From an uncultured bacterium (lineage in GTDB: Bacteria; Krumholzibacteriota; Krumholzibacteriia; LZORAL124-64-63): a stretch of 64,000 bases of DNA. The notes beneath the pieces were generated by a model. The model did not search any database. It was not told the origin of the DNA and was given only the letters and a program-made list of their open reading frames with translations. The stretch is from positions 21,269 through 85,268 of the forward strand of contig CAIWHK010000049.1 in assembly GCA_903912525.1 (NCBI GenBank), in the 5' to 3' direction. Shown here piece after piece: positions 1,487-60,722 of the stretch; within the stretch, counting starts at the first letter, position 1; every line of letters starts with the position of its first letter. Both the position numbers and the translations under genes were made by a program.

Positions 1487-1515
1487 TTGACGTCTACCTG
1501 AGAAAGATGTCTAAT
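1487..1515 (+). promoter_or_regulatory. candidate sigma70-like promoter (TTGACG-N17-TCTAAT) in an AT-rich island upstream of the Calx-β gene
   Basis: Local GC drops to about 45% over 1370-1520; hexamers read directly; about 145-nt leader to the ATG at 1661. Confidence 0.3.
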
Positions 1516-1660
1516 TGTGTCCGACTATCGCAGATTCACGGAGATGGACCAGTCGCCCAACCGCGCCGATCCTCCAGGTCTCCAACTTCCCGTTCGTCGC
1601 CGCCTACCGGTCCCTGTGGGATCGGCCGCGGCTTTCGCCCCGTCAGTTCCGGGAGTTGCC

Positions 1661-10791: not shown

Positions 10792-11017
10792 GTCAGGTGT
10801 CCTTTCGGAGGCGATGGGCCCGCCGGGCAACATCGCGTTCAGGCGGGGCCCGTGTCCCCGCGGCCATTACCCCGCAAATGTGGCCGACGGCGGCCGGTCG
10901 CGCCACCCCGGGTTATCGGCAGCCGCCGGGATTCCTGAACGACAAGGCCCGGGGCGCAAGGGGCACTCCGGGCCTTGGAACAGTCGATCGGGGCGGTTTC
11001 CCGCCCCCGGGGCCGGC

Positions 11018-11368: not shown

Positions 11369-11489
11369 GGTCCCGGGTCCTTTCGGGTTTCGCACGACCG
11401 GCGGGCCGGGCCGGTGCCGGCGCGGGCCGGGTGGGCGCGCGCAGGCGGCCAATATCGCCCGGGAGGCCCGTTTCCGCCAATCAGGACTG

Positions 11490-15293: not shown

Positions 15294-15592
15294 CCTTCCG
15301 GCCTCCTTCGCGCAATGAAGGTGAACGTCTCTTCAGTCATTTCTGAGTAGTCTCGTCAAGTGCATGAACCAGAAGTGGAAAGGAAATCCTCCACGCAGTC
15401 GAACGATCGGGCCCGGGCCCGGGAACGCCTTCCCGAAGCACTGCGGTTACTCCCGCACCGTCCAGCCGCCCGAGACCAGGATACGTCCCCGCGGAATTGC
15501 GGGGTGGGCGATCCTGGACCGAGGCCGCAATCATACCATATTCCGCAGGGAATGCGAAAAAAGTTCTGCTAATTATATGTCAATTCGACAAA

Positions 15593-26765: not shown

Positions 26766-26929
26766 CCCGTCGTCGTCTTTCGATGTCAGGTCAGGCGGCG
26801 CCGGGGCGGGGTGCCTGCGCCGAAGGGAGATCGTAACATATCCGTGATAGGCTGTATATGGGGTCGGTAAAGATGTCTTTCCCCGGGTGCGGTTGACAGC
26901 GCCCGGGGGCGGGGCTACCGTGGCGATAA

Positions 26930-27018
26930 CCGTTGGGGGTGGCCGAACCGGCTGGACCGGGTTGGCCTGAGAAAGACCCTTGGAACCTGAACCGGATCAT
27001 GCCGGCGTAGGGAAACGG
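26930..27018 (+). ncRNA. TPP riboswitch (THI-box)
   Basis: ccgttGGGGTGgccgaaccggctggaccgggttggCCTGAGAaagACCCTTgGAACCTGAaCCGGatcatGCCGGCGTAGGGAAacgg: all hallmark THI-element blocks present, with a P1 closing pair ccgtt/aacgg. Confidence 0.85.
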
Positions 27019-27027
27019 GCCGCTTGC

Positions 27028-27062
27028 GGCGCCTTCCACGACATCGGGGGGCGCCATTTTTT
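27028..27062 (+). terminator. intrinsic terminator of the TPP riboswitch expression platform
   Basis: GGCGCC...GGGGGCGCC hairpin immediately followed by ATTTTTTG, between the aptamer and the TonB receptor ATG. Confidence 0.65.
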
Positions 27063-27108
27063 GTACGCGGTGACGTTCCCGCACCGGCCACCTCGAGTGG
27101 AGGCGGCC

Positions 27109-42857: not shown

Positions 42858-44243
42858 TCAGTCGGCGTCGCGTTCCTCGGCGGAGAACAGCGCGCGCAGG
42901 GTCTCGAGGTGGCGCGCGCGTTCCTCGCGCGACTCGGAGTTGCGCAGCGACGACATCGAGCGCCCGAGCACCTTCTTGATGAACAGCTGCAGGTTCTTGT
43001 CGACCTCGTCGGCCAGCTCGTCCGACTGCTTCTTGCGGACGAATCCCACCTGCTTGTCCTTCAGCTCTTCCAGGTAGGCGCGGAACTCGGCCACGGTCGG
43101 CCGCATATCAATATCTTCCAGCCACTGCCCGAATTCGGCCAGTTCCTCGCCGATCAGGCGCTCGGCATGCGGGATCTGCCCGCGCCGCGCCGCCAGGTTG
43201 CCCTGCACGATTTCGTCGAGGTCCTCGAGCCCGAACACGAACACGTTGCCGATCTTCGCGACATCCGGGTGGATGTCGCGCGGCACCGCGATGTCCAGCA
43301 TGAACAGGGGCAGGCCGTGGCGGTCCTTCACGGCGGCCTGGACCATCGCCGGCAGGATGACCGGTTCGGTGGCGCCCGTCGTGCTGAGCACCACGTCGGC
43401 GTTCGCGATGGCGGCGCCCAGTTCGTCCCAGGGGCGGGCGATGATGCGGCTGTCGGGCCCGCGCAGGGCGCGCGCGCTGTCGGCGCTCTCGCCCTCGATG
43501 TCGAGGTCGGCCTCGACCAGCTGGCGCGACTGCTCGTCGCGCAGCGTGGCGGCCAGCGCCTCGGCGCGCTCGAAGCTGCGGTTGACCACGGTCAGGTGGC
43601 CGATGTCGTGCTGCAGGAAGTGCCGCGCGGCCAGTGCGCCGGTCTCGCCGGCGCCCACCAGCAGCGCCCGGTGCTTGCCCAGGCGGTCGAAGAACTTGCG
43701 CGACAGCTCGACCGCGGCGAACGCCACGCTCACCGCTCCCGTCGAGATCCGCGTCTCGGTGCGCACGCGCTTGCCGGCGCGGAAGGCACCCTGGAAGGCG
43801 CGCAGCAGGCCCGGCCCCGGCTCGTGGTGGGCGCGCGCCAGGCGGTAGGCGTCCTTCAGCTGGGCGGTGATCTGCGGCTCGCCCAGCATCATGCTTTCCA
43901 TGCCCGAGGCCAGCCGGTACAGGTGCGCGATGGCCTCGAGGCCGTCCAGGCGCAGCGCGTGTTCCGAGAAGAACACCTCGCAGTCGGCACCGATCGCCGC
44001 GAGGGCTTCGCGCAGGATGGCGTCGGCGTCGGCGCCGTCCTTTACTTCCAGGTAGATCTCGGTGCGGTTGCACGTCGAGACCGGGATCACCGACACGCAG
44101 GCGGGCTCGCTCGCGGAACCGGCGCTGAGGGCGTCCATCAACTCGACGGCGCGCTCCTCGGTCAGGTGCGCGCGCTCGCGCACGGCCGTCGGCGCGGTCT
44201 TGTGGCTGATGCTGCGGACATGCAGGCTGGTCGCGCCGGCCAT
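42858..44243 (-). CDS. hemA: glutamyl-tRNA reductase
   Basis: 'VIPVSTCNRTEIY', 'GEPQI', NAD-binding 'LLVGAGETG'. Confidence 0.9.
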   Translation of the reverse strand: MAGATSLHVRSISHKTAPTAVRERAHLTEERAVELMDALSAGSASEPACVSVIPVSTCNRTEIYLEVKDGADADAILREALAAIGADCEVFFSEHALRLDGLEAIAHLYRLASGMESMMLGEPQITAQLKDAYRLARAHHEPGPGLLRAFQGAFRAGKRVRTETRISTGAVSVAFAAVELSRKFFDRLGKHRALLVGAGETGALAARHFLQHDIGHLTVVNRSFERAEALAATLRDEQSRQLVEADLDIEGESADSARALRGPDSRIIARPWDELGAAIANADVVLSTTGATEPVILPAMVQAAVKDRHGLPLFMLDIAVPRDIHPDVAKIGNVFVFGLEDLDEIVQGNLAARRGQIPHAERLIGEELAEFGQWLEDIDMRPTVAEFRAYLEELKDKQVGFVRKKQSDELADEVDKNLQLFIKKVLGRSMSSLRNSESREERARHLETLRALFSAEERDAD

Positions 44244-45178
44244 CACCGCTCCCCGGTCAACAGGTGGTTGGCGGCATACGCCGGCGCATCGGCGCGCGGC
44301 GAAGCGACGGCCGAGGCGTCCATGGTCGGGAACTTGTGGAACGTCGGGAAGAAATGGTGCACCGCGCCCATGCCCACGACGATCGTCACGAAGGCGGCGA
44401 CGGCCATGATGTTCATGCGCCGGCCGCGCCAGCCCAGGAAGCGGTGGCCGGCCAGGCCCGCGGTGTAGCCCAGGAAGATGACCCACGAGAAGAGGATCTT
44501 GGCGTCCCACGGCGTCAGGGCCTTGGCCAGGCGCGGGTCCAGACCCGGCCGGTCGGCCAGGTCGTACATCCACAGGTGCCCCAGCGCGAGCGCCAGGAAC
44601 AGCAGGGGCACGCCCATCTCCACCGAGACAACGCTCATGCGCTCGAGTGTCTCGAGGGCCGGCAGGCGCCGGAACAGCAGGCCGAACCGGCGGCGCATCA
44701 GCTGCCGCGCCAGCACCAGGTACAGGATGGCGTAGAGAAAACTGAGGCTCAGGGCCGTGTACGACAGCAGCACCAGCACGGCGTGGCCGGCAAAGCCGGG
44801 GTCGCTCAACAGCGGGTTGACCTGCGCGGCGCCCGGTTCGAAGATCGCCGAGCTCAGCATCATCAAGCCCGCCGCGCCGGTCGTCAAGAAGCCGGTATTC
44901 TTCGCGCGCAGGCGACGTTCGACCACCAGGTAGGTGCCCAGGAGGGCCAGCGCCAGGGCGCTCATGAACTCGGCCTGCGTGCCCATCGGCAGACGCTGAA
45001 GCGCCACGCCCCGAATCACCATCACGCCCATGTGCAGGATCACGACGGCGGCCGCCGCGCGCGAGCAGGTGCGCCGCGCCACGGGATGCTCGGTGTAGAA
45101 CAGCCACAGGTAGTCGGCCCACACCGCCAGGTAGAGGATCGGCAGAAGGATCGTCAATACGGTCACCAGCGCGGTCAT
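44243..45178 (-). CDS. cytochrome c assembly / CcsA-like membrane protein (HemX-type partner of hemA)
   Basis: 8-TM protein immediately upstream of hemA with ATGA overlap. Confidence 0.6.
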   Translation of the reverse strand: MTALVTVLTILLPILYLAVWADYLWLFYTEHPVARRTCSRAAAAVVILHMGVMVIRGVALQRLPMGTQAEFMSALALALLGTYLVVERRLRAKNTGFLTTGAAGLMMLSSAIFEPGAAQVNPLLSDPGFAGHAVLVLLSYTALSLSFLYAILYLVLARQLMRRRFGLLFRRLPALETLERMSVVSVEMGVPLLFLALALGHLWMYDLADRPGLDPRLAKALTPWDAKILFSWVIFLGYTAGLAGHRFLGWRGRRMNIMAVAAFVTIVVGMGAVHHFFPTFHKFPTMDASAVASPRADAPAYAANHLLTGER

Positions 45179-46680
45179 CGCGCCACCTCCGCGGACAGCG
45201 GCCGCGCGCCCGTCAGCGCAGCCAGTATCTTGTCGGCAACAGCCTCGGACTCCTTGACGCACGCGTTCACGGCGATGCCCCGGTAGGCGCTCCCCGCGAA
45301 CCACAGCGACCCATGCCGGGCGGCCGCCGCGTCGATGGCCGCCAGCCGGGCCAGGTGTCCCGGGACATATTGCGCGATCGCGCGCGCGTGGCGAATGATA
45401 TTCACAAGCTCGGGCTCGCCGCGCAGGCCCAGCAGCGGACCGAGGTCGGCCAGCATGCGCTTCACCAGTTCGTCGTCGCCCAGCGTCATCACGCCGGGAT
45501 TGCCCGCGCCGCCGGCCATGCAGCGCAGGAGCACGCGACCGTCGGGCGCCAGGCCCGGGAAGATGCTGCTGCTCCAGAGCACGCCCAGCGCCGTGCGCTT
45601 CTCCTGCCCGGGCACCAGCAGGCCGAAGCCGTTCAGGTCGTGGTCGACCTTGTCGCGCGGGTAGCCCAGCGCGATGACGGCCATCGGGGCGTAGGGGATG
45701 GCGGCCAGGTCGGCCGACAGGGCGGGGTCCAGCGCGGCCGTGTGGCGCGCCGCCGCGTGCGAGGGCGCCGCGTCGAGCACCGCCGTGAAACCGCCGCGTT
45801 CGCCGCCGGGCCAGCTGACGCGCCAGCCGTCCGCGTCGCGGGTGATCGCCGAGACATCGGCGCCGCGCACCACCTCGGCCTGCGCGTCCTCGTCCAGCGC
45901 GCGGGCCAGCCCGTCGACCAGCACGGCCATGCCGCCGTCGAACGAATGCAGCACGCCGGTCGGGCCCGCGTCGGTGCGGCGGCCCTTGCGGCGCTTCTCG
46001 CGGCCCAGGGTGATCATCGCGCGGAACAGGCCGCCGTGGTCGCGTTCCAGCTCGACCATGCGCGGGAAGGCCGCCGCCAGGCTGAGTTGCTTCGACTCGC
46101 CGCCGAACACGCCCTTGACCATGGGGTCGAGCATGACGTTCGCGAACTCGCGGCCCAGCCGGCGCTCTCCGAAGCGGTCAATGGTTTCGTCGGTGGCCAG
46201 GTCGGTCGCGGCCCGGCCCAGGTCCTTGCGGCCCGGCACCAGCAACTCGCCCGCCATGCGCAGCTTGCCGCGCGTGGACAGCATCTTCGAGGACAGGAAG
46301 GCCTTCGGCGACAGCGGGATCTCCTGCAGCTTGCCGTTCACGAGCAGGAACCGCCGGCGCGTGGCATCGCTACTGCGGAGAAGGCGCGGCCGCAGGCCCA
46401 GCCGGTCGACCAGCCGCAGCGTGGCCGGCTCGTTGTCGAGGAACCCGTTCGGGCCCCACTCGAACTGCCAGCCGCCCTGGTTGAGGGTGCGCAGGTTGCC
46501 GCCGGTCTCGGTGTCCTTCTCGAACACCGTCACCGACAGGTCCACGCCCTGGGCGCGCGCGCGGTCGCGCAGCGCCAGCGCCGCGGCCAGCCCGGCCACG
46601 CCGCCGCCGATCACCGCGACCTTGAGCCCTGTTCCGCTGAATTCCTGTCCGCTGGATTTTTGTCCGCTTGCCTCAGGCAT
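45175..46680 (-). CDS. hemY: protoporphyrinogen oxidase (HemY-type FAD oxidase)
   Basis: FAD motif 'VAVIGGGVAGLAAA'; about 500 aa; located between hemH and ccsA-like. Confidence 0.8.
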   Translation of the reverse strand: MPEASGQKSSGQEFSGTGLKVAVIGGGVAGLAAALALRDRARAQGVDLSVTVFEKDTETGGNLRTLNQGGWQFEWGPNGFLDNEPATLRLVDRLGLRPRLLRSSDATRRRFLLVNGKLQEIPLSPKAFLSSKMLSTRGKLRMAGELLVPGRKDLGRAATDLATDETIDRFGERRLGREFANVMLDPMVKGVFGGESKQLSLAAAFPRMVELERDHGGLFRAMITLGREKRRKGRRTDAGPTGVLHSFDGGMAVLVDGLARALDEDAQAEVVRGADVSAITRDADGWRVSWPGGERGGFTAVLDAAPSHAAARHTAALDPALSADLAAIPYAPMAVIALGYPRDKVDHDLNGFGLLVPGQEKRTALGVLWSSSIFPGLAPDGRVLLRCMAGGAGNPGVMTLGDDELVKRMLADLGPLLGLRGEPELVNIIRHARAIAQYVPGHLARLAAIDAAAARHGSLWFAGSAYRGIAVNACVKESEAVADKILAALTGARPLSAEVAR

Positions 46681-47788
46681 CGACACCCCTCCGCCCGAAC
46701 GCCGCCGCGGCCAGGTGCGCCGCCAGCGAGTCGAGCCACCCCGCATCCTCGTTCAGCGCCGCGCCCCGCGCGAAGCCGTGCAATCCCGCCTTCTCGGCCG
46801 TTTCCTTCAGCTCGACGTCGAGTTCGAGCAGCGTCTCGATGTGCTCGCAGGTGAAGCTGACCGGCTGCACGAACAACCGCTTGCAGCCCGCGCCCGCGAT
46901 ACGCTTCGTCTCGGCCTCGACGTTCGGCTCCAGCCAGCGCACCGGGCCGACCCGGCTCTGGAAGGTGATCGCCGGCTCGGCGCCGCCAGCCATCAGCGCG
47001 CGCATCCACTCGGCGAAGCCCGCTGCGGCAACCGCCGCCGTCACCTTCGCGTGCACCGCCGCCACGGTCGCGCGCGTGCGTTCCTCGTAGCAGTCGCCCC
47101 GCTGGATGAACGAATACGGCAGCGAGTGCGCCACGTAGAGCAGGGCCGAGGTCTTCGGGTCCTCGCCGGCCGCGGCCCAGGCGATGACCTGCGCCGCCGC
47201 CGGGGCGGCCAGCGCCTCGATGAAGCCCGGCAGCAGGTGCCAGTCGGCCATCACGTGCACGGGCGCCGTGGTCGCCATGCGCTTCAGCGAGTCGAGCACG
47301 AAGTCGAGCGTGCTGCCGTTGGTGGCCGCCGAGAACTGCGGGTACATCGGGATCACGATGTACTGCTCGGCCCCGCCGCGCATCAGGCGCGACACGGCCT
47401 CGTCCGGGTACGGCTGCCAGTAGCGCATCGCGATGTCCGGGGTCACGTCGTAGCCGCCCGCGCGCAGCCGCTGGGCCAGCAGTTCGCCCTGCCGGCGCGT
47501 GGTGGCCAGTTGCGGCGTCACCGAGTCGGGGCTGACCATCAGGTACCGCTTGCGCACCTCGGGCGAGCGCTTGCGCGCGATGCCCCAGCCGATGATCGGC
47601 GCCAGCAGCGGCGGCACCGGGAAGATCTGGGGATCGCGGAACAGGTTGCGCAGGAAGGGCTCGACGGCGGTGGGCCCGTCGGGCCCGCCCATGCCCGTCA
47701 GGATCAGGCCGGTACGACGCGCCGGGTCCAGGCGCGTGGCCTGGTACCCGGCGATCTTCCCGGCGAGCGACGAGCGTTTCGAGGCCAT
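46673..47788 (-). CDS. hemH: ferrochelatase
   Basis: 'ILTGMGGPDG', 'PMYPQFS', 'HSLP'. Confidence 0.9.
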   Translation of the reverse strand: MASKRSSLAGKIAGYQATRLDPARRTGLILTGMGGPDGPTAVEPFLRNLFRDPQIFPVPPLLAPIIGWGIARKRSPEVRKRYLMVSPDSVTPQLATTRRQGELLAQRLRAGGYDVTPDIAMRYWQPYPDEAVSRLMRGGAEQYIVIPMYPQFSAATNGSTLDFVLDSLKRMATTAPVHVMADWHLLPGFIEALAAPAAAQVIAWAAAGEDPKTSALLYVAHSLPYSFIQRGDCYEERTRATVAAVHAKVTAAVAAAGFAEWMRALMAGGAEPAITFQSRVGPVRWLEPNVEAETKRIAGAGCKRLFVQPVSFTCEHIETLLELDVELKETAEKAGLHGFARGAALNEDAGWLDSLAAHLAAAAFGRRGVDA

Positions 47789-47789
47789 C

Positions 47790-49166
47790 TCAGACGGTCC
47801 TCGAGAACAGGGGCTTGTCGCCCGCGCCCGCGAGGTAGGCGTCGAAGATCATGGCCACGTTGCGCACGAAGTAGCGGCCCTTGTCGGTGATGTGCAGCCC
47901 GAAGTCGTCCGCCGTGACCAGCCCGTCGGCGACCAGCGGCGGCAGCGCCGCGAGTTCGCCGGCCAGCAGGCGGTCGGCCGGGGCGCCGAAGGCGGCCTCG
48001 GTCAGCTTCCAGGGCAGCTCCAGGTTGCACATCACGTTCAGGATGACCAGGCGCCGCATGCGGTCGTCGTCGTTCAGCTTGTGGCCCTTGACGATGGGCA
48101 GCCTGCCGGCGTCGATGGCCGCGCCCCACGGCTCGAGTTCGGCGTCGTTCTGCACGAAGCGGTCGCAGACGTCGCCGATGCCGCTCATGCCGAAGGCCAG
48201 CATGTGCGGGGCCGGCTTGGTGGCGTAGCCCATGAAGTTGCGGTGCAGCGCGCGGTTCTCGAGCGCCACCGACAACTCGTCGCCCTTCTTGGCGAAGTGG
48301 TCGATGCCGATCCAGGTGTAGTCGGCGTCCTTGAACAGGTCGACCGTCAGCTGGAACAGGGCGAACTTGTCGTAGCCGCCCAGCATGTGCGTCGTGTCGA
48401 CCTTGTTCTGCAGCGGCCGCACCCAGGGCACGTGCGCGTACGAGAAGCAGGCCACGCGGTCGGGCTGCAGGCCGATGATCTCGCCCAGCGTATGCGTGAA
48501 CGACTCGCGCGTCTGGCCGGGCAGGCCATAGACCAGGTCGACGTTGACGCCGGGGAAGCCGGCGTCACGGCAGCCCTGGTACACGTTCAGCGTGCGCTCG
48601 CGGCCCTGCCGGCGGCCGATGGCCACCTGCACGGTCTCCTCGAAATCCTGCACGCCCAGGCTGATGCGGTTGAAGCCGGCCGAGCGCAGGAAGGCCACCT
48701 GCTCGGGCGTGGCGATGCGCGGGTCGATCTCCAGCGAGACCTCGGCGTCGGGCGCCAGGTCGAACGCGCCGCGGAACATCGCCAGGGCGCGGTTCACCTC
48801 GGTCTCACTGAGGTAGTTCGGCGTGCCCCCGCCCCAGTGGAACTGCACCACGCGCCGGTTCGTGCCGATCAGCGCGGTGACCATCGCCAGTTCCTTCTCG
48901 ACGCGGTCGAGATACTCCGTGACGGCGTTCTTCTCGCGCGTGACCAGCGCATTGCAGCCGCAGTAGAAGCAGTGCTTGGCGCAGAAGGGCAGGTGCAGGT
49001 AGATGGCCAGCTCGTCGCCGGGCTTCTGCGCCAGTTCGGCCAGCGCCTCGCGGTACTCGGCGTCGCCGAAAGCCTGCTTCCAGGCCGGCACCGTCGGGTA
49101 GCTCGTGTAGCGCGGCCCGGCGGTATTGTACTTCTCGACGAAGTCGGCCGGTATGTTCAAGGACAT
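47790..49166 (-). CDS. hemN: oxygen-independent coproporphyrinogen III oxidase (radical SAM)
   Basis: 'YLHLPFCAKHCFYCGC', 'GGGTPNYL'. Confidence 0.9.
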   Translation of the reverse strand: MSLNIPADFVEKYNTAGPRYTSYPTVPAWKQAFGDAEYREALAELAQKPGDELAIYLHLPFCAKHCFYCGCNALVTREKNAVTEYLDRVEKELAMVTALIGTNRRVVQFHWGGGTPNYLSETEVNRALAMFRGAFDLAPDAEVSLEIDPRIATPEQVAFLRSAGFNRISLGVQDFEETVQVAIGRRQGRERTLNVYQGCRDAGFPGVNVDLVYGLPGQTRESFTHTLGEIIGLQPDRVACFSYAHVPWVRPLQNKVDTTHMLGGYDKFALFQLTVDLFKDADYTWIGIDHFAKKGDELSVALENRALHRNFMGYATKPAPHMLAFGMSGIGDVCDRFVQNDAELEPWGAAIDAGRLPIVKGHKLNDDDRMRRLVILNVMCNLELPWKLTEAAFGAPADRLLAGELAALPPLVADGLVTADDFGLHITDKGRYFVRNVAMIFDAYLAGAGDKPLFSRTV

Positions 49167-49196
49167 GGTCGTCCGTCCTTACGCTCTGTCGTTCTA

Positions 49197-50234
49197 TCAG
49201 TGACCGCGCCGGAATTCCTGGACCGTACGGACCAGGGTCTCCACCGCGGGGATCGGCGCATGCGGCAGAATGCCGTGCCCCAGGTTGAACACGTGGCCGG
49301 GGGCCTTTTCGCCCTTGCGGCAGATCTCCAGCGCGCGCGAGCGCACCTGCTCGTGCGTGCCGTACAGCACCAGCGGGTCCAGGTTGCCCTGCACGCAGCG
49401 GCCCGGCAGCTCAGTGATGGCGCGCGTCAGGTCCTGCGTCCAGTCCACCCCGAAGCACTCGACGTCCAGGGTCGAGACGAGGTGGTTGTAAGGCGCGCTG
49501 CCCTTCAGGAAATAGATACGGGGCACGCCCGAGTCCTTCAGGCCGTCCATGATGCGGCGCACCACCGGCAGCACGTGCTTCTCGTAGTCGGCCGGGTGCA
49601 GGATGCCGCCCCAGGTGTCGAACAGCTGCACGGCGTCGACGCCGGCCGCGACCTGCATCTTCAGGTAGTCCAGCACCTGGTCGCCCAAAAGATCGAGCAG
49701 CTCCTGCAGCAGGTCGGGCCGCGAGTACAGCATCGTCTTGATATGCTCGTACTCCTTCGATCCGCCGCCCTCGATCAGGTAGCTGGCCAGCGTGAACGGC
49801 GAGCCCGCGAAGCCGATCAACGGCGTCTTGTCGCCCAGTTCCTTCTTCATCAGCTTGATGGCGTCGGCCACGAAGCCGACGCCTTCCAGCGACGGGTAGC
49901 GCTACAGCGAGCGGATGTCGCGCTCGTCGCGCAGCGGCCGCTCCAGCTTGGGGCCGCCGTGCGAGAAGTCGAACGGGGCGCCCATGGCCTCGAGCGGCGT
50001 CAGGATGTCGCTGAACATGATCGCCGCGTCGAAGCCGAACCGCCGGATCGGCTGGATGGTGACCTCGCAGGCCGCCTCGGGCGAACGGCACAGGTCGTTG
50101 AACGAGATCTTCGACCGCACCTCCATGTACTCCGGCAGGTAGCGGCCCGCCTGGCGCATGACCCAAATGGGCGTACGGTCGCACGGCTCGCCGCGCAGGT
50201 TCTTCAGGAAGATGCAGTCCTTGAGGTCGGCCAT
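49197..50234 (-). pseudogene. hemE: uroporphyrinogen decarboxylase hemE interrupted by a single in-frame TAG (49902-49904)
   Basis: The two same-frame ORFs (49902-50234 and 49197-49901) together give a full 345-aa UroD ('[12 protein letters not shown]...IGFAGSPFTLASY...') with TAG between '...RDIRSL' and 'RYPSLEGVGFV...'. Confidence 0.7.
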
Positions 50235-50239
50235 GCGCG

Positions 50240-51526
50240 TCAGCTCCAGCTCTTGAAGGTGTCGGCCACGGCACTCACCGTGGCGTCGATGTCGGCGTCG
50301 GTATGCGCCGCGCTCACGAACCCGACTTCCCAGCCCGACGGGGCCAGGTAGATGCCGCGGTCGATCAGGTCGCGGTGCAGACGTCCGTAGATGGGCATCT
50401 TCGAGCCGTCGACGGCCGCGACCGCGCGCGGCGCCTCGGGCTGGAACACGCACCAGAACAGCGAGCCCTGCCGGGCCAGGCTGGCGGTGATGCCGGCGTC
50501 GGCCGCGGCCTTCTTCAGGCCCGCCTCGAGCCGGGCGCCCTTGCGCTCGAGGTCCTCGTAGAAGCCGGGGCGGCCCGTCTTCTCCAGGGTCACGAGTCCC
50601 GCGGCCATCGCAACCGGGTTGCCGCTCAGCGTGCCGGCCTGGTAGACCGAGCCCAGCGGCGAGACGTGCGCCATGATGTCCCGGCGCGTGGCGTAGGCGC
50701 CCACGGGGAAGCCGCCGCCGATGATCTTGCCGTAGGTGCCCATGTCCGGCGTGATGCCGAGCAACTCGGCCGCGCCGCTGCGCGCCACGCGGAAGCCGGT
50801 GATGACCTCGTCAAAGATCAGAAGCGCGCCGTGTTTCGTCGTCAGGTCGCGGCAGGCCTTCATGAACGCGGCAGTCTGGATGAGCAGGCCGCTGTTGGCC
50901 GGCACCGGCTCGATGATGAGCGCGGCCACCTCGCTGCCGCGCGCGGCGAAGAACGCTTCCAGCTTCTCGACGTCGTCCAGGGGCAGCACGACCGTGGTGT
51001 CGCTGAAGCCCTTGGGGACGCCGGCGCTGCTGGGCGTGCCGAACGTGGCCAGGCCGCTGCCCGCTTCCACGAGCAGGCTGTCGGTGTGGCCGTGGTAGCA
51101 GCCGCTGAACTTGACGGTGATGTCACGGCCCGTGAAGCCGCGAGCCAGGCGGATTGCGCTCATCACGGCCTCGGTGCCGCTGCTGACGAAGCGCACCTGG
51201 TCGAAGTGCGGCATGCGGGCCAGGAAGGCCTCGGCCAACAGCACCTCGCGGCGGCTGGGCGCGCCGAACGACGCGCCCTCGTTCATCGCCTCGAGCGCCG
51301 CGGCGTGCACCTCGGCGTCGGCGTGGCCCAGGATGAGCGGGCCCCAGCTCAGGCACCAGTCGATGTACGACTTCCCGTCCTCGTCGGTGAAGCGGCAGCC
51401 CTTCGCCGACTTGAAGAACAGGGGATCGCCCGGCACCGACTTGAACGACCGCACCGGGCTGTTGACGCCGCCGGGCATGACCTTCTGCGCCCGCTCCCAC
51501 CAGTTCGCGTTGCTCACTTGAGCCAT
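50240..51526 (-). CDS. hemL: glutamate-1-semialdehyde 2,1-aminomutase
   Basis: '[10 protein letters not shown]', '[10 protein letters not shown]' with the PLP lysine context. Confidence 0.9.
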
Positions 51527-52497
51527 CCCTTCGAGAGTGCGTCGCGGCCGTGGTAGGTGATGATCAGGTCCGAGCCGGCGCGGCGCATGGCCAGCAGGTT
51601 CTCGCGCACGATCAGCGCCTCGTTCACCCAGCCGGCGGCAGCCGCGGCCTTCACCAGCGAGTACTCGCCCGACACGTTGTAGCAGACCACGGGGATGAGC
51701 ACCTCGTCGCGCACGCGGCGGATGATGTCCAGGTAGGCCAGCGCGGGCTTGACCATCACCATGTCGGCGCCCTCGTCCACGTCCAGCAGCGCCTCGAGCA
51801 CGCCTTCGCGGCCGTTGCGCACGTCCATCTGGTAGCTCTTGCGGTCGCCCTGCGGCGCGCTGTCGCAGGCGTCGCGGAACGGGCCGTAGTAGGCGCTGGC
51901 GTACTTGGCGCTGTAGGCCAGGATCGCCGTGTCGGTGTAGCCCTCTTCGTCCATCAGCATGCGCATGGCGCCGACGCGGCCGTCCATCATGTCCGAGGGG
52001 CTGACGATGTCGGCGCCGTTGCGGGCGTGGGCCAGGGCCATCTCGGCCAGCTGTTCGACGCTGGCGTCGTTGACAACCTTGCCGTTCTCCAGGAAGCCGC
52101 AGTGGCCGTGGCTGGTGTAGGCGCACAGGCAGACGTCGGTGATGGTGATGATGTCCTGGCCGAACTGCTTCTTCAGCTCGCGCAGGGCGCGCGCCACGAC
52201 CGAGTCGTCGCCCAGCGCCGTGGAGCCGGTGGCGTCCTTCTTGTCGGGGATGCCGAACAGCAGGTGCGACTTCAGGCCCAGCTCGAGGTCAGCGGCCACT
52301 TCCTTGACCAGGTTGTCGACCGACACGTGGCCGATGCCGGGCATGCTGGCGATCTCGTCCTTGAATCCGGTGCCTTCGACCACGAAGTGCGGGGTGATCA
52401 GGTGCCGCGCCTCGACGTTGGTCTCGGCGACCATCTCGCGCATGACGGGGGTGGTGCGCAGGCGGCGGGGGCGTTCGAACATCTCCATGGTGTGCAC
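51514..52497 (-). CDS. hemB: porphobilinogen synthase (ALA dehydratase)
   Basis: 'RPRRLRTTPVMREMVAET', 'SPSDMMDGRV', 'MVKPALAYLDII'; GGAG RBS. Confidence 0.9.
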   Translation of the reverse strand: MHTMEMFERPRRLRTTPVMREMVAETNVEARHLITPHFVVEGTGFKDEIASMPGIGHVSVDNLVKEVAADLELGLKSHLLFGIPDKKDATGSTALGDDSVVARALRELKKQFGQDIITITDVCLCAYTSHGHCGFLENGKVVNDASVEQLAEMALAHARNGADIVSPSDMMDGRVGAMRMLMDEEGYTDTAILAYSAKYASAYYGPFRDACDSAPQGDRKSYQMDVRNGREGVLEALLDVDEGADMVMVKPALAYLDIIRRVRDEVLIPVVCYNVSGEYSLVKAAAAAGWVNEALIVRENLLAMRRAGSDLIITYHGRDALSKGWLK

Positions 52498-52511
52498 TCC
52501 GGTCCGAAGGT

Positions 52512-53204
52512 TTACGGGTTCCGGTCCAGGCCGGCGGCCCGGATCATCGCTTCCAGGTCGGGGGTCGCGGCGACCTCCGGTGCGAATCCGGCCTCGCGGG
52601 CAGCAGCCGCGGTGGTGGCGCCGATCGCCACGCATGCCGGTCGTTCGCTCCACGCGGCGGCAAACGCGCGCACCGCGGTGGGGCTGCAGAAGAAGACCAC
52701 GTCGCCCGGCGCCAGCGGCGCGGGCGGCAGTTCGCCCGGGGGCACCGCCGACGTGCGGTACAGCGCCACTTCCAAAACCTTGCAACCGGCCGCGCGCAGC
52801 GATGCGCCCGGCTCGCGCAGGCGCCCTTCGGCGCCCGGCAGCAGCACGCGGCACGGCGCGTCGACGCATTCCAGGAACGCGCGGGCCAGCGCGGCGCCGT
52901 CCGGTTCGTTCACACCCAGCACGTCGTAAAGCCCGACGGCTTCCAGCGCGGCGCGCGTGCCGTCACCCAGGGCGCCGAGCTTAACTCCGTCCGGCAACCC
53001 GTCCCACTCCGCCAGCGAACGTGCGCCCTGCGGCGACGTTACCAGCGCCCAGTCCCAGCGGCCCTCGGGGGCCGGCGCCGCCAGCGTCTCGTAGCGCAGC
53101 AGCGGCAGGTCCAGCACGGCCATGCCCCGCGCGCGCAGCTCCGCCAGCCACGGTGCATTGCCCTGCGCCTCGCGGGTCAGGACGATGCGGCGGCCGGCGT
53201 CCAA
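52512..53204 (-). CDS. hemD: uroporphyrinogen-III synthase
   Basis: About 230 aa HemD-like; TTG start 2 nt after the hemC TAG; N-terminal 'RRIVLTREA'. Confidence 0.65.
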   Translation of the reverse strand: MDAGRRIVLTREAQGNAPWLAELRARGMAVLDLPLLRYETLAAPAPEGRWDWALVTSPQGARSLAEWDGLPDGVKLGALGDGTRAALEAVGLYDVLGVNEPDGAALARAFLECVDAPCRVLLPGAEGRLREPGASLRAAGCKVLEVALYRTSAVPPGELPPAPLAPGDVVFFCSPTAVRAFAAAWSERPACVAIGATTAAAAREAGFAPEVAATPDLEAMIRAAGLDRNP

Positions 53205-53206
53205 GC

Positions 53207-54154
53207 CTACAGCCCCCGGTGTGAGGCGAGCTTCGGCCAGGCCGTCTCGGCCAGAGCGTCGGGATCCGAACCCGTCAGGCTCAAACGCAGCGGAGCGGCA
53301 TCGGCGGCATCCAAAGCGAGGAACGCCTCGAGCTTCCACGCCGACCCGCCGCCGGTGATGTTCACGCCGAACGGCAGCTGGCAGCCGCCCTCGAGCCGGC
53401 ACAGCAGGTTGCGCTCGGCGCGCACCGCGCGCGCGGCCTCGGCGCAGTCGAGTTGCGCGATGGTCCGCTTCCAGATGTCCTCGTCGCGGCACTGCAGCCC
53501 GAGCATGCCCTGCGCGGGCGCCGGCACGAACACCGCGGGATCGAGCGGGCAGGTGTAGAGGTCGCTCAGGTCCAGCTCGAGCCGCTTCAGCCCGGCGCAG
53601 GCCAGCAGGATGGCGTCGTAGCGTCCCTCGCGCAGCCGGTTGACGCGCGTCGGCACGTTGCCGCGCAGGTCGACGATCTGCACGTCGGGCCGCACCAGAC
53701 GCAGCTGCGCCTGCCGACGCGCGGCGCTGGTGCCCACGCGCGGACCATCCTTCAGCGGCAGCGGGTCGCCCGCGGCGCGGCGCGCTTCATCGACCGCTTC
53801 CTTGCGCACCAGCAGCATCTCGCGCGCGTCCTCGCGTCCGACCATCGCCGCCAGCACCAGGCCGTCGGGCATCTCGGTCGCCAGGTCCTTCAGCGAGTGC
53901 ACGGCCAGGTCGACGCGACCGGCCAGCAGCGCATCCTCGAGCTCCTTCGTGAAGAAGCCCTTGCCCTCGAGCTGCGCCAGCGGCACATCGTCGATGCGAT
54001 CGCCCCGCGTCTTGATGATCTCGATCTCGGTCTCGGTGCCCAGCTCGCCGAGCATCCGCTGGATGGTGTGGGCCTGCCAAAGGGCCAGGTCCGAACCGCG
54101 GGTACCGATGCGGCACTTGGGGGCGAAATCGTGAGAGGCGGGCTGCTGGGGCAC
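53207..54154 (-). CDS. hemC: hydroxymethylbilane synthase (porphobilinogen deaminase)
   Basis: 'RIGTRGSDLALWQA', 'IKTRGD', 'AVHSLKD'; GTG start with GGAGGA RBS. Confidence 0.85.
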   Translation of the reverse strand: MPQQPASHDFAPKCRIGTRGSDLALWQAHTIQRMLGELGTETEIEIIKTRGDRIDDVPLAQLEGKGFFTKELEDALLAGRVDLAVHSLKDLATEMPDGLVLAAMVGREDAREMLLVRKEAVDEARRAAGDPLPLKDGPRVGTSAARRQAQLRLVRPDVQIVDLRGNVPTRVNRLREGRYDAILLACAGLKRLELDLSDLYTCPLDPAVFVPAPAQGMLGLQCRDEDIWKRTIAQLDCAEAARAVRAERNLLCRLEGGCQLPFGVNITGGGSAWKLEAFLALDAADAAPLRLSLTGSDPDALAETAWPKLASHRGL

Positions 54155-54225
54155 GTCGGGTCCTCCGGGGTGGGCCGCTGCGCGGGTGGGAATTTTGACA
54201 AATATAATGGATACAGGGTTGGGGG

Positions 54226-54252
54226 CCAGCTTAGCCCCCTTTTTGGCGCCCG
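54226..54252 (+). terminator. plus-strand intrinsic-terminator-like hairpin (GGGGGC-cagctta-GCCCCC + TTTTTGG) with no annotated plus-strand gene upstream
   Basis: Read directly; a TTGACAaaTATAAT motif lies about 15 nt upstream. Confidence 0.35.
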
Positions 54253-54501
54253 ACAGCGACCGCGCCGGGTGCAAAAATCGGATCACAAAAGCGAAAATGA
54301 ACTAATTTTTGAACAAATATGCGCCCGGGGTTTGCAACCGCACCCGGACGGGGCCGCACCCGCCGGGAAAGGTCGTGAAAACCGGCAACCCAGGTGTGTT
54401 CGGGCCTCCATTTCCCCTATACTCATCCTGATCATGCTTCTTCGACTTCCCGCCCGACGATCGGGGAGCGAAGCGCATGCCTATGTCGCAAAGGGGGAGC
54501 G

Positions 54502-57500
54502 ATGAAGCGCCTGCCGTATCACGTGGCCAGGGGTGCGCTGCTGTTGCTGGTAACCTGCAGCGCCGCCGCAGGGGCGCCATCCGCCGCGCGCGTACCGTCA
54601 TCGGGACAGCACCTGTACTACGGCGCCGCCGCCACCGCCAAGGCGACCGGCGACACCGTCGACCTGATGGGCCCGGGCGCCGCCTTCCCGTACCGGGGTG
54701 ATTTCGAGACCGCGCAGGCGCGGCCCGCTGCCGCGGGTGCGTTGCCGGATGGCTGGACCTCGATCGACCAGACCTCCCCGGCGAACCACTGGCATGTCGA
54801 CAGCTACGGCAACCCGTTCGGGGGCGCGGCGGCCTGGTGCGGCGCGCTGGCCTTGGCGTACTGCGGCGGCGAGGATCCCGAAAGCGGCTACGCCAACGAC
54901 TGGCGCGACATCCTCGAGTTCCGCAAGACGGTCGGCGGGGCCGCCTCGGTGCGCGTGCAGGCCGACCTCCAGTACGACTGCGAACCCGGCTACGACTTCA
55001 CGACGCTGCAGCGTCGCACCGCGGCGCAACCCCTGTTCGAACCCGTTGCCGGCGGCCAGGGCCTGTCGTGGGACGGCGTCGGCACGGTGGCGGTGGACTA
55101 CACGTTCACCTACGCGCCGGCCGAACTGGTGGGCGGCGCCGACATCGCCATCGCCTTCGTGTTCGATTCGGACAACACCTGGTCCGACGGCGACTGCAAC
55201 TGGCCCACCGGGGGCGCCTGCCGCGTGGACAACATCGTCGTCACCCTGAACGGCGTCGCCTACACCGAGGATTTCTCCGACGGCGAACTGGGCCCCGACT
55301 GGGTCGCGGCGCCGAACGTGGGTGTGGGAAACTTCGCGCGCGTCTGGGGCCAGCTCGGCGACCTCGATGATTGCGCCCAGGACTACACCAAGGTCATCGC
55401 CTTCATCGACGACGGCCTGGTCGTGCCCGGCACCGGAGGCACTATCGGGGAACCCGGCAACGACTACGGACCGCCGGGCGGCTACATCGTCAACAACACC
55501 GGCGGGTTGCTGGGGCCGGCCTACCACCTGGAAAACGTCGTCGATTCACCGATGATGGCATTCCCCGACCAGGCCCGGCGGGGTGTGACCCTCGCGTTCG
55601 ACGTCTATCGCCACGAGCTGCTCGCGCCGAACGACAGCCCCGGCATCTTCTACACGTGGAGCATCCGCTCGGGTACTGCGGATTGGTTTGCCCACCTCAG
55701 CTACGGATGGTTCGACCGCAATTTCGTCTACTACGGCGGTCCCTCGTACCAGCGTTCGATCAACGTCGTCGACGACCTGATCGATCCGGACGCGACCCAC
55801 CTGCAGGTGCAGTTCGGCGTCATCGAGCTGGGCTGGCAGTTCGGCTACGGCAACGGCACCAACGGGACGCCGGCGCCGTATTTCGACAACGTCAGTGTCA
55901 AGGTGTACGGGTCCACCGGCCCCCACATCGTCGCGACCGAGATCCGACTGGCGAACGACGGCTTCCCGGCCATCGGCGATGTGGACCTCGTTCACCTTGG
56001 CGCCAACTCGGTGCGCTTCGACATGGCGGCGAACATCTCCGCGAGGACGCACCTGCGCAACGATCCCGGCGACAGCATCTGGATCGACGTGACGGCGCGT
56101 GCCGGTGGCCAGTTGGTGGGCCCACCGGTCATGTACTGGACGTTCGCGAGGAAGAACCCGCTGTTCAATCCGTATCGTTCGCTGCCGGCGAACCCGGTGG
56201 TGGGCAACGTGACCCGCAACGCGGCCGGCGTCACCGTCGCCAATCGCTACAACTTCGACCTGCCCGACACCGGCATGCTCTTCCCGGGCGACGTCCTGCA
56301 ATACTACTTCGCGTCCACCGACCAGGTCGGCGCCGACATCCGCACGGCGTTTGTCCCGGCGGACCGCAGCGGACTGGGCAATCCGTACCCGCACCAGAAC
56401 CTGTCGTCGCCCTACCAGCCTGCCTACCCGGGCGCGTTCACCGTCCGGTGCCTGCCGTCGGTGCAGGACGCCACGGGGTACCAGCCGTCCGTCCTGTTCT
56501 GGAACGACACCGGCTTCCGCGGCGACGAGGAGCGCTGGCACTCCGCCTTCATGTACCTGTGCTACAGGGCCGGCAGCGAATACGACCTGTTCACCACCCA
56601 CGGACCGACGTCCGGCGTCGGCAACGGCCTCGGCGGCCGGGCCACCGCGGCGCAGCTCGACGGCTACAGCGACATGCTGTACTCGTCGGGAGACCTGGGC
56701 ACCGCGACGCTGTCCAACGGCGACTTCAGCGGCGACCCGGGCAACGACCTGGCGCTGTTGAACAACTGGTTCGCGGTCGGTGGCCGGGACCTGTTCATGA
56801 CCGGCGATGACCTGGCGACCAGCCTCGCCGCGGCGGGAAGCGCGGGCACCACGTTCCTCGAGACCCGCATGGGGCTGGTGGTCAACGACGGCGACGTCCG
56901 CGACAACATCGGCGGGCAGGTGGCGCCCCTGGTCGTCAAGATGTCGGGCAATCCGGTGTTCGCCACCGCGGTGTCATGGACCGCCTACGGCGGCTGCCTG
57001 AACATCAACGACTTCGACAACGTCACGCCGCGGCCGGGAGCGGTGCGGTTGGCCCAGTTCACGTCGCCGGACGGCGTGTCCGCGCCCTACCCGTACGCGG
57101 CGGCCACGTTGAACGTCAACGGCGGCAATCGCGTCGTGTCGATGGATCACGACTTCAGGTATGTCACCGAGCCGGACAAGAGCCCGGTGCCCATTCCGGC
57201 CCGGGTCAAGATCCTCAGCAACGTGCTCGACTACTTCTGGGTGGCGAACAACCTGAGCGATTGCTTGGGCGATGCGCCCCCGGCCGCCGATGACCGTTTT
57301 GCCGTGACCAGCTACCCGAACCCGTTCAACCCGTCGGTCACGCTGCGCTACACGTTGCAGGCGCCAGGTCTGGTCACCATGAAGGTGTTCGACATGCGCG
57401 GCGCGCTGGTGCGCACGCTGCTCGACGGGCCCGTCGACCAGCCGAGCGGGGCGGTCACGTGGAACGGGCGCAGCGACGCGGGGGCGCAGGCGGCGTCTGG

Positions 57501-57567
57501 GCTGTACTTCGTGGAGACGCGCGCCGGCGACGAGGTGGACGTGCGCAAGGTGACGATGCTGAAGTGA
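54502..57567 (+). CDS. large secreted T9SS cargo protein, paralog 1 (unknown Cys-containing N-terminal module, no HExxH)
   Basis: Signal peptide; 1021 aa; C-terminal 'YPNPFNPSVTLRYTL...GLYFVETRAGDEVDVRKVTMLK'; GGGGGAG RBS. Confidence 0.8.
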   Translation: MKRLPYHVARGALLLLVTCSAAAGAPSAARVPSSGQHLYYGAAATAKATGDTVDLMGPGAAFPYRGDFETAQARPAAAGALPDGWTSIDQTSPANHWHVDSYGNPFGGAAAWCGALALAYCGGEDPESGYANDWRDILEFRKTVGGAASVRVQADLQYDCEPGYDFTTLQRRTAAQPLFEPVAGGQGLSWDGVGTVAVDYTFTYAPAELVGGADIAIAFVFDSDNTWSDGDCNWPTGGACRVDNIVVTLNGVAYTEDFSDGELGPDWVAAPNVGVGNFARVWGQLGDLDDCAQDYTKVIAFIDDGLVVPGTGGTIGEPGNDYGPPGGYIVNNTGGLLGPAYHLENVVDSPMMAFPDQARRGVTLAFDVYRHELLAPNDSPGIFYTWSIRSGTADWFAHLSYGWFDRNFVYYGGPSYQRSINVVDDLIDPDATHLQVQFGVIELGWQFGYGNGTNGTPAPYFDNVSVKVYGSTGPHIVATEIRLANDGFPAIGDVDLVHLGANSVRFDMAANISARTHLRNDPGDSIWIDVTARAGGQLVGPPVMYWTFARKNPLFNPYRSLPANPVVGNVTRNAAGVTVANRYNFDLPDTGMLFPGDVLQYYFASTDQVGADIRTAFVPADRSGLGNPYPHQNLSSPYQPAYPGAFTVRCLPSVQDATGYQPSVLFWNDTGFRGDEERWHSAFMYLCYRAGSEYDLFTTHGPTSGVGNGLGGRATAAQLDGYSDMLYSSGDLGTATLSNGDFSGDPGNDLALLNNWFAVGGRDLFMTGDDLATSLAAAGSAGTTFLETRMGLVVNDGDVRDNIGGQVAPLVVKMSGNPVFATAVSWTAYGGCLNINDFDNVTPRPGAVRLAQFTSPDGVSAPYPYAAATLNVNGGNRVVSMDHDFRYVTEPDKSPVPIPARVKILSNVLDYFWVANNLSDCLGDAPPAADDRFAVTSYPNPFNPSVTLRYTLQAPGLVTMKVFDMRGALVRTLLDGPVDQPSGAVTWNGRSDAGAQAASGLYFVETRAGDEVDVRKVTMLK

Positions 57568-57635
57568 CGCGAGAGGGCGGACAGCAAAGCCTGACGCGGC
57601 GATGGCCTGAACTGTCAATGGGGGAGATGGACGTC

Positions 57636-60600
57636 ATGACCACATTGCGCCATTCGGGTGCCCTGATGCTGGCGATCGCGGTGTTGATGGCTGCCGCGGT
57701 TGCGCACGCCAGCGCCGCCGCGGGACGGTCGTTGGCGGGAGTGTCCGCGCGGGAGTGGACGCCGACCAGCACGGTCCCGGTCACCACGTACGGCGGCGGC
57801 GCCGGCAAGGCCGTGGTCGACACCGTCACCCTGATGGGGCCGGGAGGCGTCTACCCGTATCGCGGCGACTTCGAGACGGTCAGTCCCCGCCCCGCAGCCG
57901 AAGGCCGCCTGGCCGACGGTTGGACCTCGATCGACTACACATCCCCGATCAACGGCTGGCACGTCGATACCTATCGCAACCCGTTCACGGGCAAGGCCGC
58001 CTGGTGTGGAGACCTGGCGATCGCGTCGTGCGGTTCCGACCCGGCCGGCGGCTACGGCAACAACTGGTACGGCATGCTCGAGTTCCGCAAGACGGTTGGC
58101 GCGGCTCCGGCCACCGTGCGTGTGCAGGCCAACGTGCAGTACGACTGCGAGCCGGCCTACGACTACCTGATGCTGCAACGGCGCACGGCCGCCGCTCCCG
58201 CCTTCGAGCCCGTCGCCACGGGCCAGGGCTTGTCTTGGGACGGCATCGGCACCACCGCCGTCGACTACACCTTCATGTGGACGGCCGCCGAACTGCTGGG
58301 CGGCACCGACATCGCCGTGGCTTTCGTGTTCGATGCGGATGGAGGCTGGTCGGACGCGGACTGCAGTTACCCGTCGGACGGCGCCGCGCGGGTGGACGAC
58401 GTCATCGTCACGGTCAACGGGACGGCGACCTACAGCGAAGATTTCGAGGATGGCGCCCTCGGGCCCGACTGGGCGGCGACGCCGAACCAGGGCGTCGGCG
58501 ACTACGCGCGGGTGTGGGACTCCGCGGGCGATCTGGACGACTGCGCCGCCAACTACTCGCGGCTCGTCGCGTTCCTGGACGACGGACTGGTCGTGCCCGG
58601 TACCGGAGGCACCCGGGGCACCACCGGCATGGACTACGGCCCGGGCGGCTGGGTCGTCAACGGGCGGGGCGGGATGCTGGGCTACAACAACGGCCTGGAC
58701 AACAGCATCCTGTCGCCGGTGATGGACCTGCCGGATCCGACCGCCGGCGGCCTGACGCTGGCCTTCGACGTCTACCGGCACGAGACATATTCAACGTCGT
58801 CCGCCGGCGTCTTCTACACCTGGGATATCCGCTCGACAGAGGGCGGCGACATCACCCAGGCCGCGTGGGTCAACCGCAACTTCGTCTATTACGGCGGCCC
58901 GGCCTGGGTGCGCGCGGTCAACCAGGCGGATGACCTGCTCGTCCCAGGGGCCACGCAGGCGCAGGTGCGCCTGAGCGCGATGCAGTTCAACTGGTTCTTC
59001 TGCTACGGTTGCGGCTGGGGCATCCCCACCCCGGCGCCGTACTTCGACAATGTCAACGTGAAGGCGTACCGCGGCACGGGGCCGCGCATCGTGGTCACCG
59101 ACATCCGTCTGGCCAGCGACGTGTTCCCGGCCTCGGGCGCGCTGGACCTGGCCAATCTCGCCGCGAACTCCTGCCGCTTCGACATGGCTGCGAACATCTC
59201 GCTCAAGACGCACAATCGCAACGACCCGGGCGACTCGATCTGGATCGAAGCGACGCCGCGTTCGGGCGGCACCCTGTCCACGCCGGTCATGCACTGGAAG
59301 TTCGCGAACAAGAACCCGTTGTTCACCGACGCGCATCGCACGGCCCTGGCCTCTGGCCAGATGGAAGGCAACGTCGCCGGCCGCGTGACCCGCACGGCTA
59401 CCGGGACCATCGTCGCCAACCGCTGGAACTTCGACCTTCCGGACACCGGCATGCTCTTCCCCGGCGACGTGCTGCACTACTACTTCGCCGCGACGGACGT
59501 GGTCGCGGGTGACACGCGCACGTCCACCGCGCCGGCGGACCTCGCCGGCTACGGCAGGCCGAATCCGCTGACCTATCCTGCCGTCTTCACGGTCAACTGC
59601 CTGCCGAGCGTATCCGACGCACAAGGCACGCAACCCACCATCCTCCTGTGGAACGATGCGGGCAACCGCGGCAACGATGACGAATGGAATACGGCCCTGC
59701 AGTTGCTTTGCCAGGTCGGCGGCCTCGACTACGACGTCTTCAACACCCACGGCGCGGCTTCCGGCGTCGGCAACGGCCTGGGCGGCCGCGCTACCGTGTC
59801 CCAGATCACGGGCTATGCCGACATGCTCTACACCTGCGGCGACCTGGGCGCCTTCACCCTCTCGAACGGCGACTACAACGTCGATGCGGGCAACGACCTG
59901 GGCCTGCTGGAGGCGTGGCTCGGGCTCGGCACTCGCGACCTCTTCGCGGCCGGCGACGACCTGGCGGCGAGTCTCTACGCGAGCGGCACCGCCGGGCGCG
60001 ACTTCCTGGCGAACCGCCTGGGTGCGGCCTATGTCGACGGTGACGTCCGCGACAACATCGACGGGCAGGATCAACCCCGGGTCGTGAGGGTGTCCGGCAA
60101 CCCCGTGTTCACGACCGCCAACGCGTGGACGGTCAACGGCGGTTGCCCGACCTTCAACGACTTCGACTACGTCACGCCGCTGCCCGGCGCCGTCCGGTTG
60201 GCGCAGTTCACGGGCACGGACGGCACGTCGACGCCCTACACCGCGGCGGCGGCCATCCTCAAGGTGAACGGGACCAGTCGCGTCGTCTCCCTGAACCACG
60301 ACCTGTCGTACATCATCGACAACGCCAAGGCCGCGTCACCGCTGCCTTATCGCGCACGGGTGATCAGCAACGTGCTGGACTACTTCCAGGCGATGCTGAA
60401 CTTCGGCGACTGCTACGCCGGCACGCCCCCGTTGCCGGGCGTCCCGGGCAGTTTCGCCGTCACCAGCTACCCGAACCCGTTCAACCCGTCGGTGACGCTG
60501 CACTACTCGCTGCCGAAGCCGGGCCCGGTGACGATGAAGGTCTTCGACGCCCGCGGTACCCTGGTGCGCACGCTGCTCGACGGCCCGGTGGAAACGGCCG

Positions 60601-60722
60601 AGGGCAGTGTCGTCTGGAACGGGACGGACCAGCGCGGCGGTCGCGCGCCGTCGGGCCTTTATTTCGTGGAGACCCGCGCCGGCGACCAGGTGGACGTGCG
60701 CAAGGTGACGATGTTGAAGTGA
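57636..60722 (+). CDS. large secreted T9SS cargo protein, paralog 2 (about 65-70% identical to paralog 1 over the N-terminal module)
   Basis: Same architecture and C-terminal domain 'YPNPFNPSVTLHYSL...GLYFVETRAGDQVDVRKVTMLK'. Confidence 0.8.
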   Translation: MTTLRHSGALMLAIAVLMAAAVAHASAAAGRSLAGVSAREWTPTSTVPVTTYGGGAGKAVVDTVTLMGPGGVYPYRGDFETVSPRPAAEGRLADGWTSIDYTSPINGWHVDTYRNPFTGKAAWCGDLAIASCGSDPAGGYGNNWYGMLEFRKTVGAAPATVRVQANVQYDCEPAYDYLMLQRRTAAAPAFEPVATGQGLSWDGIGTTAVDYTFMWTAAELLGGTDIAVAFVFDADGGWSDADCSYPSDGAARVDDVIVTVNGTATYSEDFEDGALGPDWAATPNQGVGDYARVWDSAGDLDDCAANYSRLVAFLDDGLVVPGTGGTRGTTGMDYGPGGWVVNGRGGMLGYNNGLDNSILSPVMDLPDPTAGGLTLAFDVYRHETYSTSSAGVFYTWDIRSTEGGDITQAAWVNRNFVYYGGPAWVRAVNQADDLLVPGATQAQVRLSAMQFNWFFCYGCGWGIPTPAPYFDNVNVKAYRGTGPRIVVTDIRLASDVFPASGALDLANLAANSCRFDMAANISLKTHNRNDPGDSIWIEATPRSGGTLSTPVMHWKFANKNPLFTDAHRTALASGQMEGNVAGRVTRTATGTIVANRWNFDLPDTGMLFPGDVLHYYFAATDVVAGDTRTSTAPADLAGYGRPNPLTYPAVFTVNCLPSVSDAQGTQPTILLWNDAGNRGNDDEWNTALQLLCQVGGLDYDVFNTHGAASGVGNGLGGRATVSQITGYADMLYTCGDLGAFTLSNGDYNVDAGNDLGLLEAWLGLGTRDLFAAGDDLAASLYASGTAGRDFLANRLGAAYVDGDVRDNIDGQDQPRVVRVSGNPVFTTANAWTVNGGCPTFNDFDYVTPLPGAVRLAQFTGTDGTSTPYTAAAAILKVNGTSRVVSLNHDLSYIIDNAKAASPLPYRARVISNVLDYFQAMLNFGDCYAGTPPLPGVPGSFAVTSYPNPFNPSVTLHYSLPKPGPVTMKVFDARGTLVRTLLDGPVETAEGSVVWNGTDQRGGRAPSGLYFVETRAGDQVDVRKVTMLK

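Follow-up and report, generated by a model that had tools for sequence, protein, structure and literature searches.

The window analyzed here, a stretch of 64,000 nucleotides, has a G+C content of 69% and a very high third-position G+C, so that coding frames are easily visible; its nearest public genomes are Candidatus Krumholzibacteriota-type metagenome-assembled genomes. NCBIfam and Pfam matches delineate a ten-gene heme biosynthesis cluster on the minus strand, in which hemE, the gene for uroporphyrinogen decarboxylase (UroD), contains an in-frame stop codon. The features to which we refer below are these, with L081 and L082 denoting two other contigs that carry the same gene.

42858–54286, minus strand: heme biosynthesis cluster in the order hemC, hemD, hemB, hemL, hemE, hemN, hemH, hemY/protoporphyrinogen oxidase, CcsB-like cytochrome c assembly protein, hemA
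53207–54286, minus strand: hemC
42858, minus strand: end of hemA
49197–50234, minus strand: hemE, 345 sense positions (TAG stands in one of them) and a terminal TGA
49902–49904, minus strand: in-frame TAG at codon 111, the only internal stop in the hemE translation, between ...RDIRSL and RYPSLEG...
49904: A on the plus strand (T on the minus strand); L081 and L082 have C on the plus strand (G on the minus strand), which gives GAG (Glu)
49905–50234, minus strand: N-terminal fragment of 110 residues, the product if TAG terminates; the exact sequence is recorded as P0135
49197–49871, minus strand: downstream ORF of 224 residues with an internal GTG start, recorded as P0121 and P0129
49860–49883, minus strand: perfect 10-bp G+C-rich hairpin (GGCGUCGGCU/GGCCGACGCC), starting 18 nt 3' of the TAG

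The nine other genes of the cluster are uninterrupted, leaving hemE as the sole exception between 42858 and 54286, and the annotated genes of the window contain no frameshift or other nonsense lesion. The NCBIfam/Pfam annotation thus bears out the first-pass annotation of this DNA, which had described the rest of the cluster as intact. The same order of hem genes is present in two relatives (L162 and L163). Outside the cluster there are genes for SCO1, COX1, COX3, heme O synthase, a Suf system, and a COX2 extended at its C terminus by CxxCH; an aa3-type oxidase with a cytochrome c domain is encoded, as is cytochrome c assembly. Given the oxidase subunits, SCO1, and heme O synthase, the organism clearly uses heme. 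Two further observations concern the window at large. A TPP riboswitch (RF00059, 68.8 bits versus a gathering score of 54.3) lies at 26925–27030 on the plus strand, directly upstream of a TonB-dependent receptor gene (26971–29433), a placement that suggests thiamine-regulated outer-membrane uptake. There are also several very large ORFs of 680–1,500 residues (1502–6040, 54379–57567, and 57294–60722 on the plus strand; 13302–15332 on the minus strand), which have no family match or only a C-terminal FlgD_ig-like domain (a 1,513-residue ORF lay outside the family scan) and which may encode secreted or surface proteins.

With the TAG masked, the hemE protein matches the hemE equivalog profile TIGR01464 from end to end (profile positions 2–338 of 338) with 390.2 bits against a curated cut-off of 302.95, belongs to the UroD family (PF01208), and aligns to solved UroD structures with E = 4e-89 (6w2o). 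The RQAGRY, FSDIL, SY..EGG, FDTWGG, and NLGHG motifs, which we take from UroD structures to serve in substrate binding and catalysis, are identical in the alignment with solved UroD chains. The translation and the TIGR01464 match show the earlier description of a single TAG at 49902–49904 in an otherwise full-length hemE to be exact, in coordinates as in content. In the window the frame for the whole barrel is therefore broken at codon 111, and gene callers report the 224-residue ORF as a second UroD fragment. A second hemE copy, which the first-pass annotation had proposed looking for, was not found within the 64-kb window.

An intact form of the same protein exists on an otherwise identical background. 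P0124, a 345-residue protein with Glu at position 111 and otherwise identical to the window hemE, is recorded on three contigs. One is L081 (2,652 bp, from ENA assembly ERZ18658887) and another L082 (2,434 bp, from ENA assembly ERZ27313532); each matches the window over its whole length with no gap and with one mismatch, at 49904, where the gene strand has G (GAG) in both contigs versus T (TAG) in the window. Since neither contig shows an indel or any other substitution, the window assembly is accurate at the level of 1 in 2,600. Their common endpoint at window position 48047 means that L081 and L082 are perhaps not independent. The third contig also encodes the intact protein, so that, besides the window, G is found on three contigs and T on none. 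By comparison, a single contig, of 103,798 bp and evidently the source of the window, is the only one on record for the truncated products of 110 and 224 residues; among 15 billion collected proteins the T allele thus occurs once. Exact look-ups of these two fragments and of the window hemN, hemH, and hemY in a contig index gave no record. A 30-mer around codon 111 found nothing in a pattern scan of metagenome DNA, and a protein-guided metagenome scan returned no match closer than 92% identity. Taken together, the identical background with its one mismatch and the single-contig origin of the fragments identify the lesion as one G-to-T transversion private to one assembly. As a separate matter, the shared endpoint of L081 and L082 at 48047 falls inside hemN, and the third contig, from the same strain, encodes a 458-residue hemN that must differ from that of the window because an exact look-up of the window hemN gave no match. 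The 3' part of hemN seems to contain a point that varies between strains and at which assemblies break.

Codon 111 is a sense codon throughout the relatives. Glu (GAA or GAG, in the same RSLERYPSLEG context) is found in the four nearest genomes, whose protein identities are 98% and 91%, and codons for Arg, His, Gln, Lys, Thr, or Ser in more distant ones; in all, 21 of the 21 loci readable in frame have a sense codon (a 22nd, L045, is frameshifted and was left out). No stop occurs anywhere in hemE in any of 59 related loci from genomes and metagenomes. The position itself is one of the most variable columns of the region, being occupied by R, H, Q, E, N, K, S, T, V, or C among 141 homologues, and for this reason a residue inserted by near-cognate readthrough would probably be tolerated. 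The dN/dS ratios between the window hemE and its counterparts in L001, L002, L003, and L031 are 0.10–0.19, which places the gene under purifying selection until the single change. About 3.2% of all possible single-base substitutions in hemE would create a stop.

TAG serves as an ordinary terminator elsewhere in the window. Where hemC ends in TAG, the aligned codon is TGA in L002 and L003 and likewise TAG in L031, and the TAG that ends ctaC (22303–22305) is followed 12 nt later by the TTG that starts the heme O synthase gene. We also searched the whole window for stops that have coding-like sequence free of stops, in the same frame, on either side. On coding strands this embedded-stop scan returned three ordinary gene boundaries, a TGA at 10675–10677, and the hemE TAG; it also gave two antisense-frame TAGs inside the 1502–6040 gene. 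TAG is thus neither absent as a terminator nor frequent inside genes. The hemC and ctaC terminators and the embedded-stop scan accordingly uphold the earlier statement that TAG is a real stop elsewhere and that code reassignment is unlikely. The window contains no tRNA genes, and no pyl genes were seen among its annotated genes.

The TGA at 10675–10677 lies in a small IscA/HesB-like gene (10447–10866, minus strand), which reads ...VRLFVQGFG-TGA-GGPSIGMALDE..., and an adjacent paralogue (11018–11539, minus strand) has Cys exactly at the TGA position (...VRLFVQGMGCSGPSIGMALDE...). Both paralogues show sub-threshold matches to NF038090 (IscA_HesB_Se) and TIGR01911 (HesB_rel_seleno). Judged from their sequences, the two look like a selenocysteine/cysteine pair; an 81-nt segment that begins 3 nt before the TGA and runs across it folds no better than its shuffles.

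The hairpin downstream of the hemE TAG was considered as a readthrough-stimulating structure and rejected. The 111 nt from the TAG onward fold with z = −1.46, and 16 of 200 shuffles fold as well as the native sequence; moreover, the hairpin is equally present in the contigs that carry GAG. It is probably incidental. The segment that forms it encodes GVGFVADA, a peptide that L002 encodes too, and the hairpin sequence cannot be the same in L001, L003, and L031, since these encode GVPYVA there.

These observations bear on several explanations that give the TAG a biological role or a long history. That programmed readthrough, a suppressor tRNA, or pyrrolysine yields a full-length UroD might be argued from the variability of position 111 across the 141 homologues, which would tolerate almost any inserted residue, from the strong hairpin 18 nt downstream, and from the base that follows the TAG, a C; a stop followed by C is a comparatively leaky context in E. 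coli. Such functional recoding is nevertheless highly improbable. The UAG is conserved in 0 of 59 related loci, as neither pyrrolysine use nor programmed readthrough with a conserved stop and a conserved stimulatory context or structure would have it, and otherwise identical DNA reads GAG; the hairpin accompanies GAG alleles with an unremarkable fold, neither a tRNA in the window nor a pyl gene among its annotated genes is at hand, and TAG terminates hemC and ctaC normally. A genome-wide reassignment of TAG as a sense codon has nothing in its favor beyond the single hemE codon and can be given a negligible chance, because several window genes end in TAG where relatives have TGA or where the next gene starts, and in 64 kb the hemE TAG is the only one on a coding strand that interrupts coding-like sequence. 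Highly improbable as well is a long-standing loss of UroD, in which the lineage would be a heme or porphyrin auxotroph and hemE a decaying pseudogene. The truncation of the enzyme at residue 110 of 345 and the lack of a second hemE in the 64-kb window would fit such a loss; a decaying pseudogene should, however, show several lesions and relaxed constraint, and what we see is one substitution relative to L081 and L082 on a background that matches the intact allele over 2.65 kb, dN/dS of 0.10–0.19, nine uninterrupted neighboring hem genes, and an intact codon 111 in all relatives. The evidence as a whole effectively rules out a reassigned code, pyrrolysine, programmed readthrough, and a loss of UroD throughout the lineage. 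Of the four options raised in the first-pass annotation, an error and a population polymorphism therefore still stand, and a lineage without UroD does not, given the intact GAG on the same strain-level sequence, Glu in close relatives, and purifying selection. Low-level readthrough, the remaining option, found no specific support, as relatives lack the stop and the sequence downstream of it shows no significant fold; accidental near-cognate readthrough would in any case be leakage rather than a mechanism.

The weighing that matters is between a base present in the DNA and a base introduced on the way to the contig. The artefact explanation, under which the DNA has GAG and the T stems from a consensus or graph-path error or from a library artefact (such as oxidative G-to-T damage where local coverage is low), is a serious possibility that we put somewhat below even odds. 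It draws on the G in every other sequence of the strain or species and on the singleton status of the T allele in 15 billion proteins. It also draws on the unexpectedness of a null allele in an essential pathway: selection against it is expected because the organism encodes an aa3-type oxidase, heme O synthase, and cytochrome c assembly, and such selection on a single-copy essential heme gene lowers the prior for a real, dominant T. Furthermore, where hemE is broken in related metagenome assemblies, the cause is typically a frameshift that looks like an assembly error. L033 and L045 have frameshifts in most genes, hemE included; hemE of L162 has an extra C in a C-run (a homopolymer insertion); and L163 (3950–4030) and L164 (314–394), JGI assemblies with the consecutive dataset ids Ga0558126 and Ga0558123, have a common 1-bp insertion in hemE near codon 58, which reflects a systematic error in both or else a true frameshift shared in that population, with a further extra C in L164 and a split hemH in L163. 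In assemblies of this sort gene disruptions are frequent and mostly of technical origin. We considered from these cases whether hemE disruption recurs in the lineage and rejected the idea, since all breaks lie at sites other than the TAG and look like assembly errors. Against an artefact, the window is otherwise identical to independent short-read assemblies over 2.65 kb and has no frameshifts. Nor is there systematic motif-linked miscalling. CTGGAG, which is known as a restriction-modification motif and could provoke systematic long-read miscalls, occurs in the intact allele; we considered and rejected this cause, as the window still has 45 CTGGAG/CTCCAG sites and none of the other five CTCCAG sites within the shared 2.65 kb has changed, so that an error tied to the motif is unlikely. 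Oxidative G-to-T artefacts are low in frequency and rarely win the consensus on a long, well-covered contig, and a de Bruijn contig of 104 kb will normally trace whichever k-mer path is best covered. Record names suggest that L001 (LJ_bin) and L081 (BUCK21-1_SAMEA...) come from a stratified-lake dataset of Illumina NovaSeq reads assembled with MEGAHIT, both as single-sample assemblies and as lake-wise co-assemblies (Buck et al., PMC8121793). If the window comes from the same project, as we infer, the rule of the best-covered path slightly favors a variant that was truly in the reads.

We therefore prefer, at a probability of roughly 0.5, the reading in which the TAG arose very recently by an unprogrammed point change confined to this assembly, and the T is a real DNA variant that constitutes a null allele. 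A G-to-T transversion would have converted the GAG of Glu111 to TAG in an ordinary, selected hemE, and the null allele would be carried by the cells that dominate one assembly, with the same population elsewhere keeping the intact allele. Termination at the TAG would leave a 110-residue fragment lacking most of the (beta/alpha)8 barrel. Cells of this kind would make no coproporphyrinogen III and would need heme or porphyrin from their neighbors, or rare near-cognate readthrough. A stronger version, in which the T is both real and dominant in the sampled population, seems unlikely; a Krumholzibacteriota strain would then just have lost UroD, living as a heme or porphyrin cross-feeder or on trace near-cognate readthrough at a codon that tolerates any residue, and keeping the remainder of the pathway together with its aa3-type oxidase. 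Were this so, the window would offer a snapshot of the first step to heme auxotrophy in a stratified-lake community, and a T allele at high frequency would make a small but datable case of heme auxotrophy emerging in a natural population.

We conclude that the stop in the window hemE is a one-off mutation or an assembly error, an ordinary feature rather than a special biological mechanism, and that it represents neither a recoding event nor evidence for a lineage without UroD. As otherwise identical public sequence has an intact codon, metabolic reconstructions of the lineage should score heme biosynthesis as complete. The case also counsels caution: one in-frame stop in an assembled metagenome is no ground for inferring pathway loss or recoding.

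With solved and known HemE proteins (TIGR01464/PF01208; 6w2o, 4zr8, 2inf, and human 1uro) the window hemE shares a full-length match above the curated cut-off, the HemE motifs (21 protein letters, not shown, and NLGHGI), and a place in a hem operon with hemL and hemN as neighbors; it differs from them in having TAG for the Glu111 codon, in a variable stretch before the GFVADAIKLMKKEL segment. The UroD superfamily also includes the MtaA/MtbA corrinoid methyltransferases, which are weak secondary matches for the window hemE, and an in-frame UAG is common to this gene and the pyrrolysine-containing methylamine methyltransferases. Known pyrrolysine sites, however, are conserved among orthologues and require pylTSBCD, whereas the window TAG is found on one contig only and replaces a variable Glu. 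The window hemE also resembles the ordinary nonsense variants, pseudogene alleles, and assembly errors of metagenome-assembled genomes in having a single lesion private to one assembly. The same gene is broken elsewhere in related assemblies (L033, L045, L162, L163, and L164), but by frameshifts: those lesions are indels of the long-read type, whereas that of the window is a substitution in an otherwise error-free assembly.
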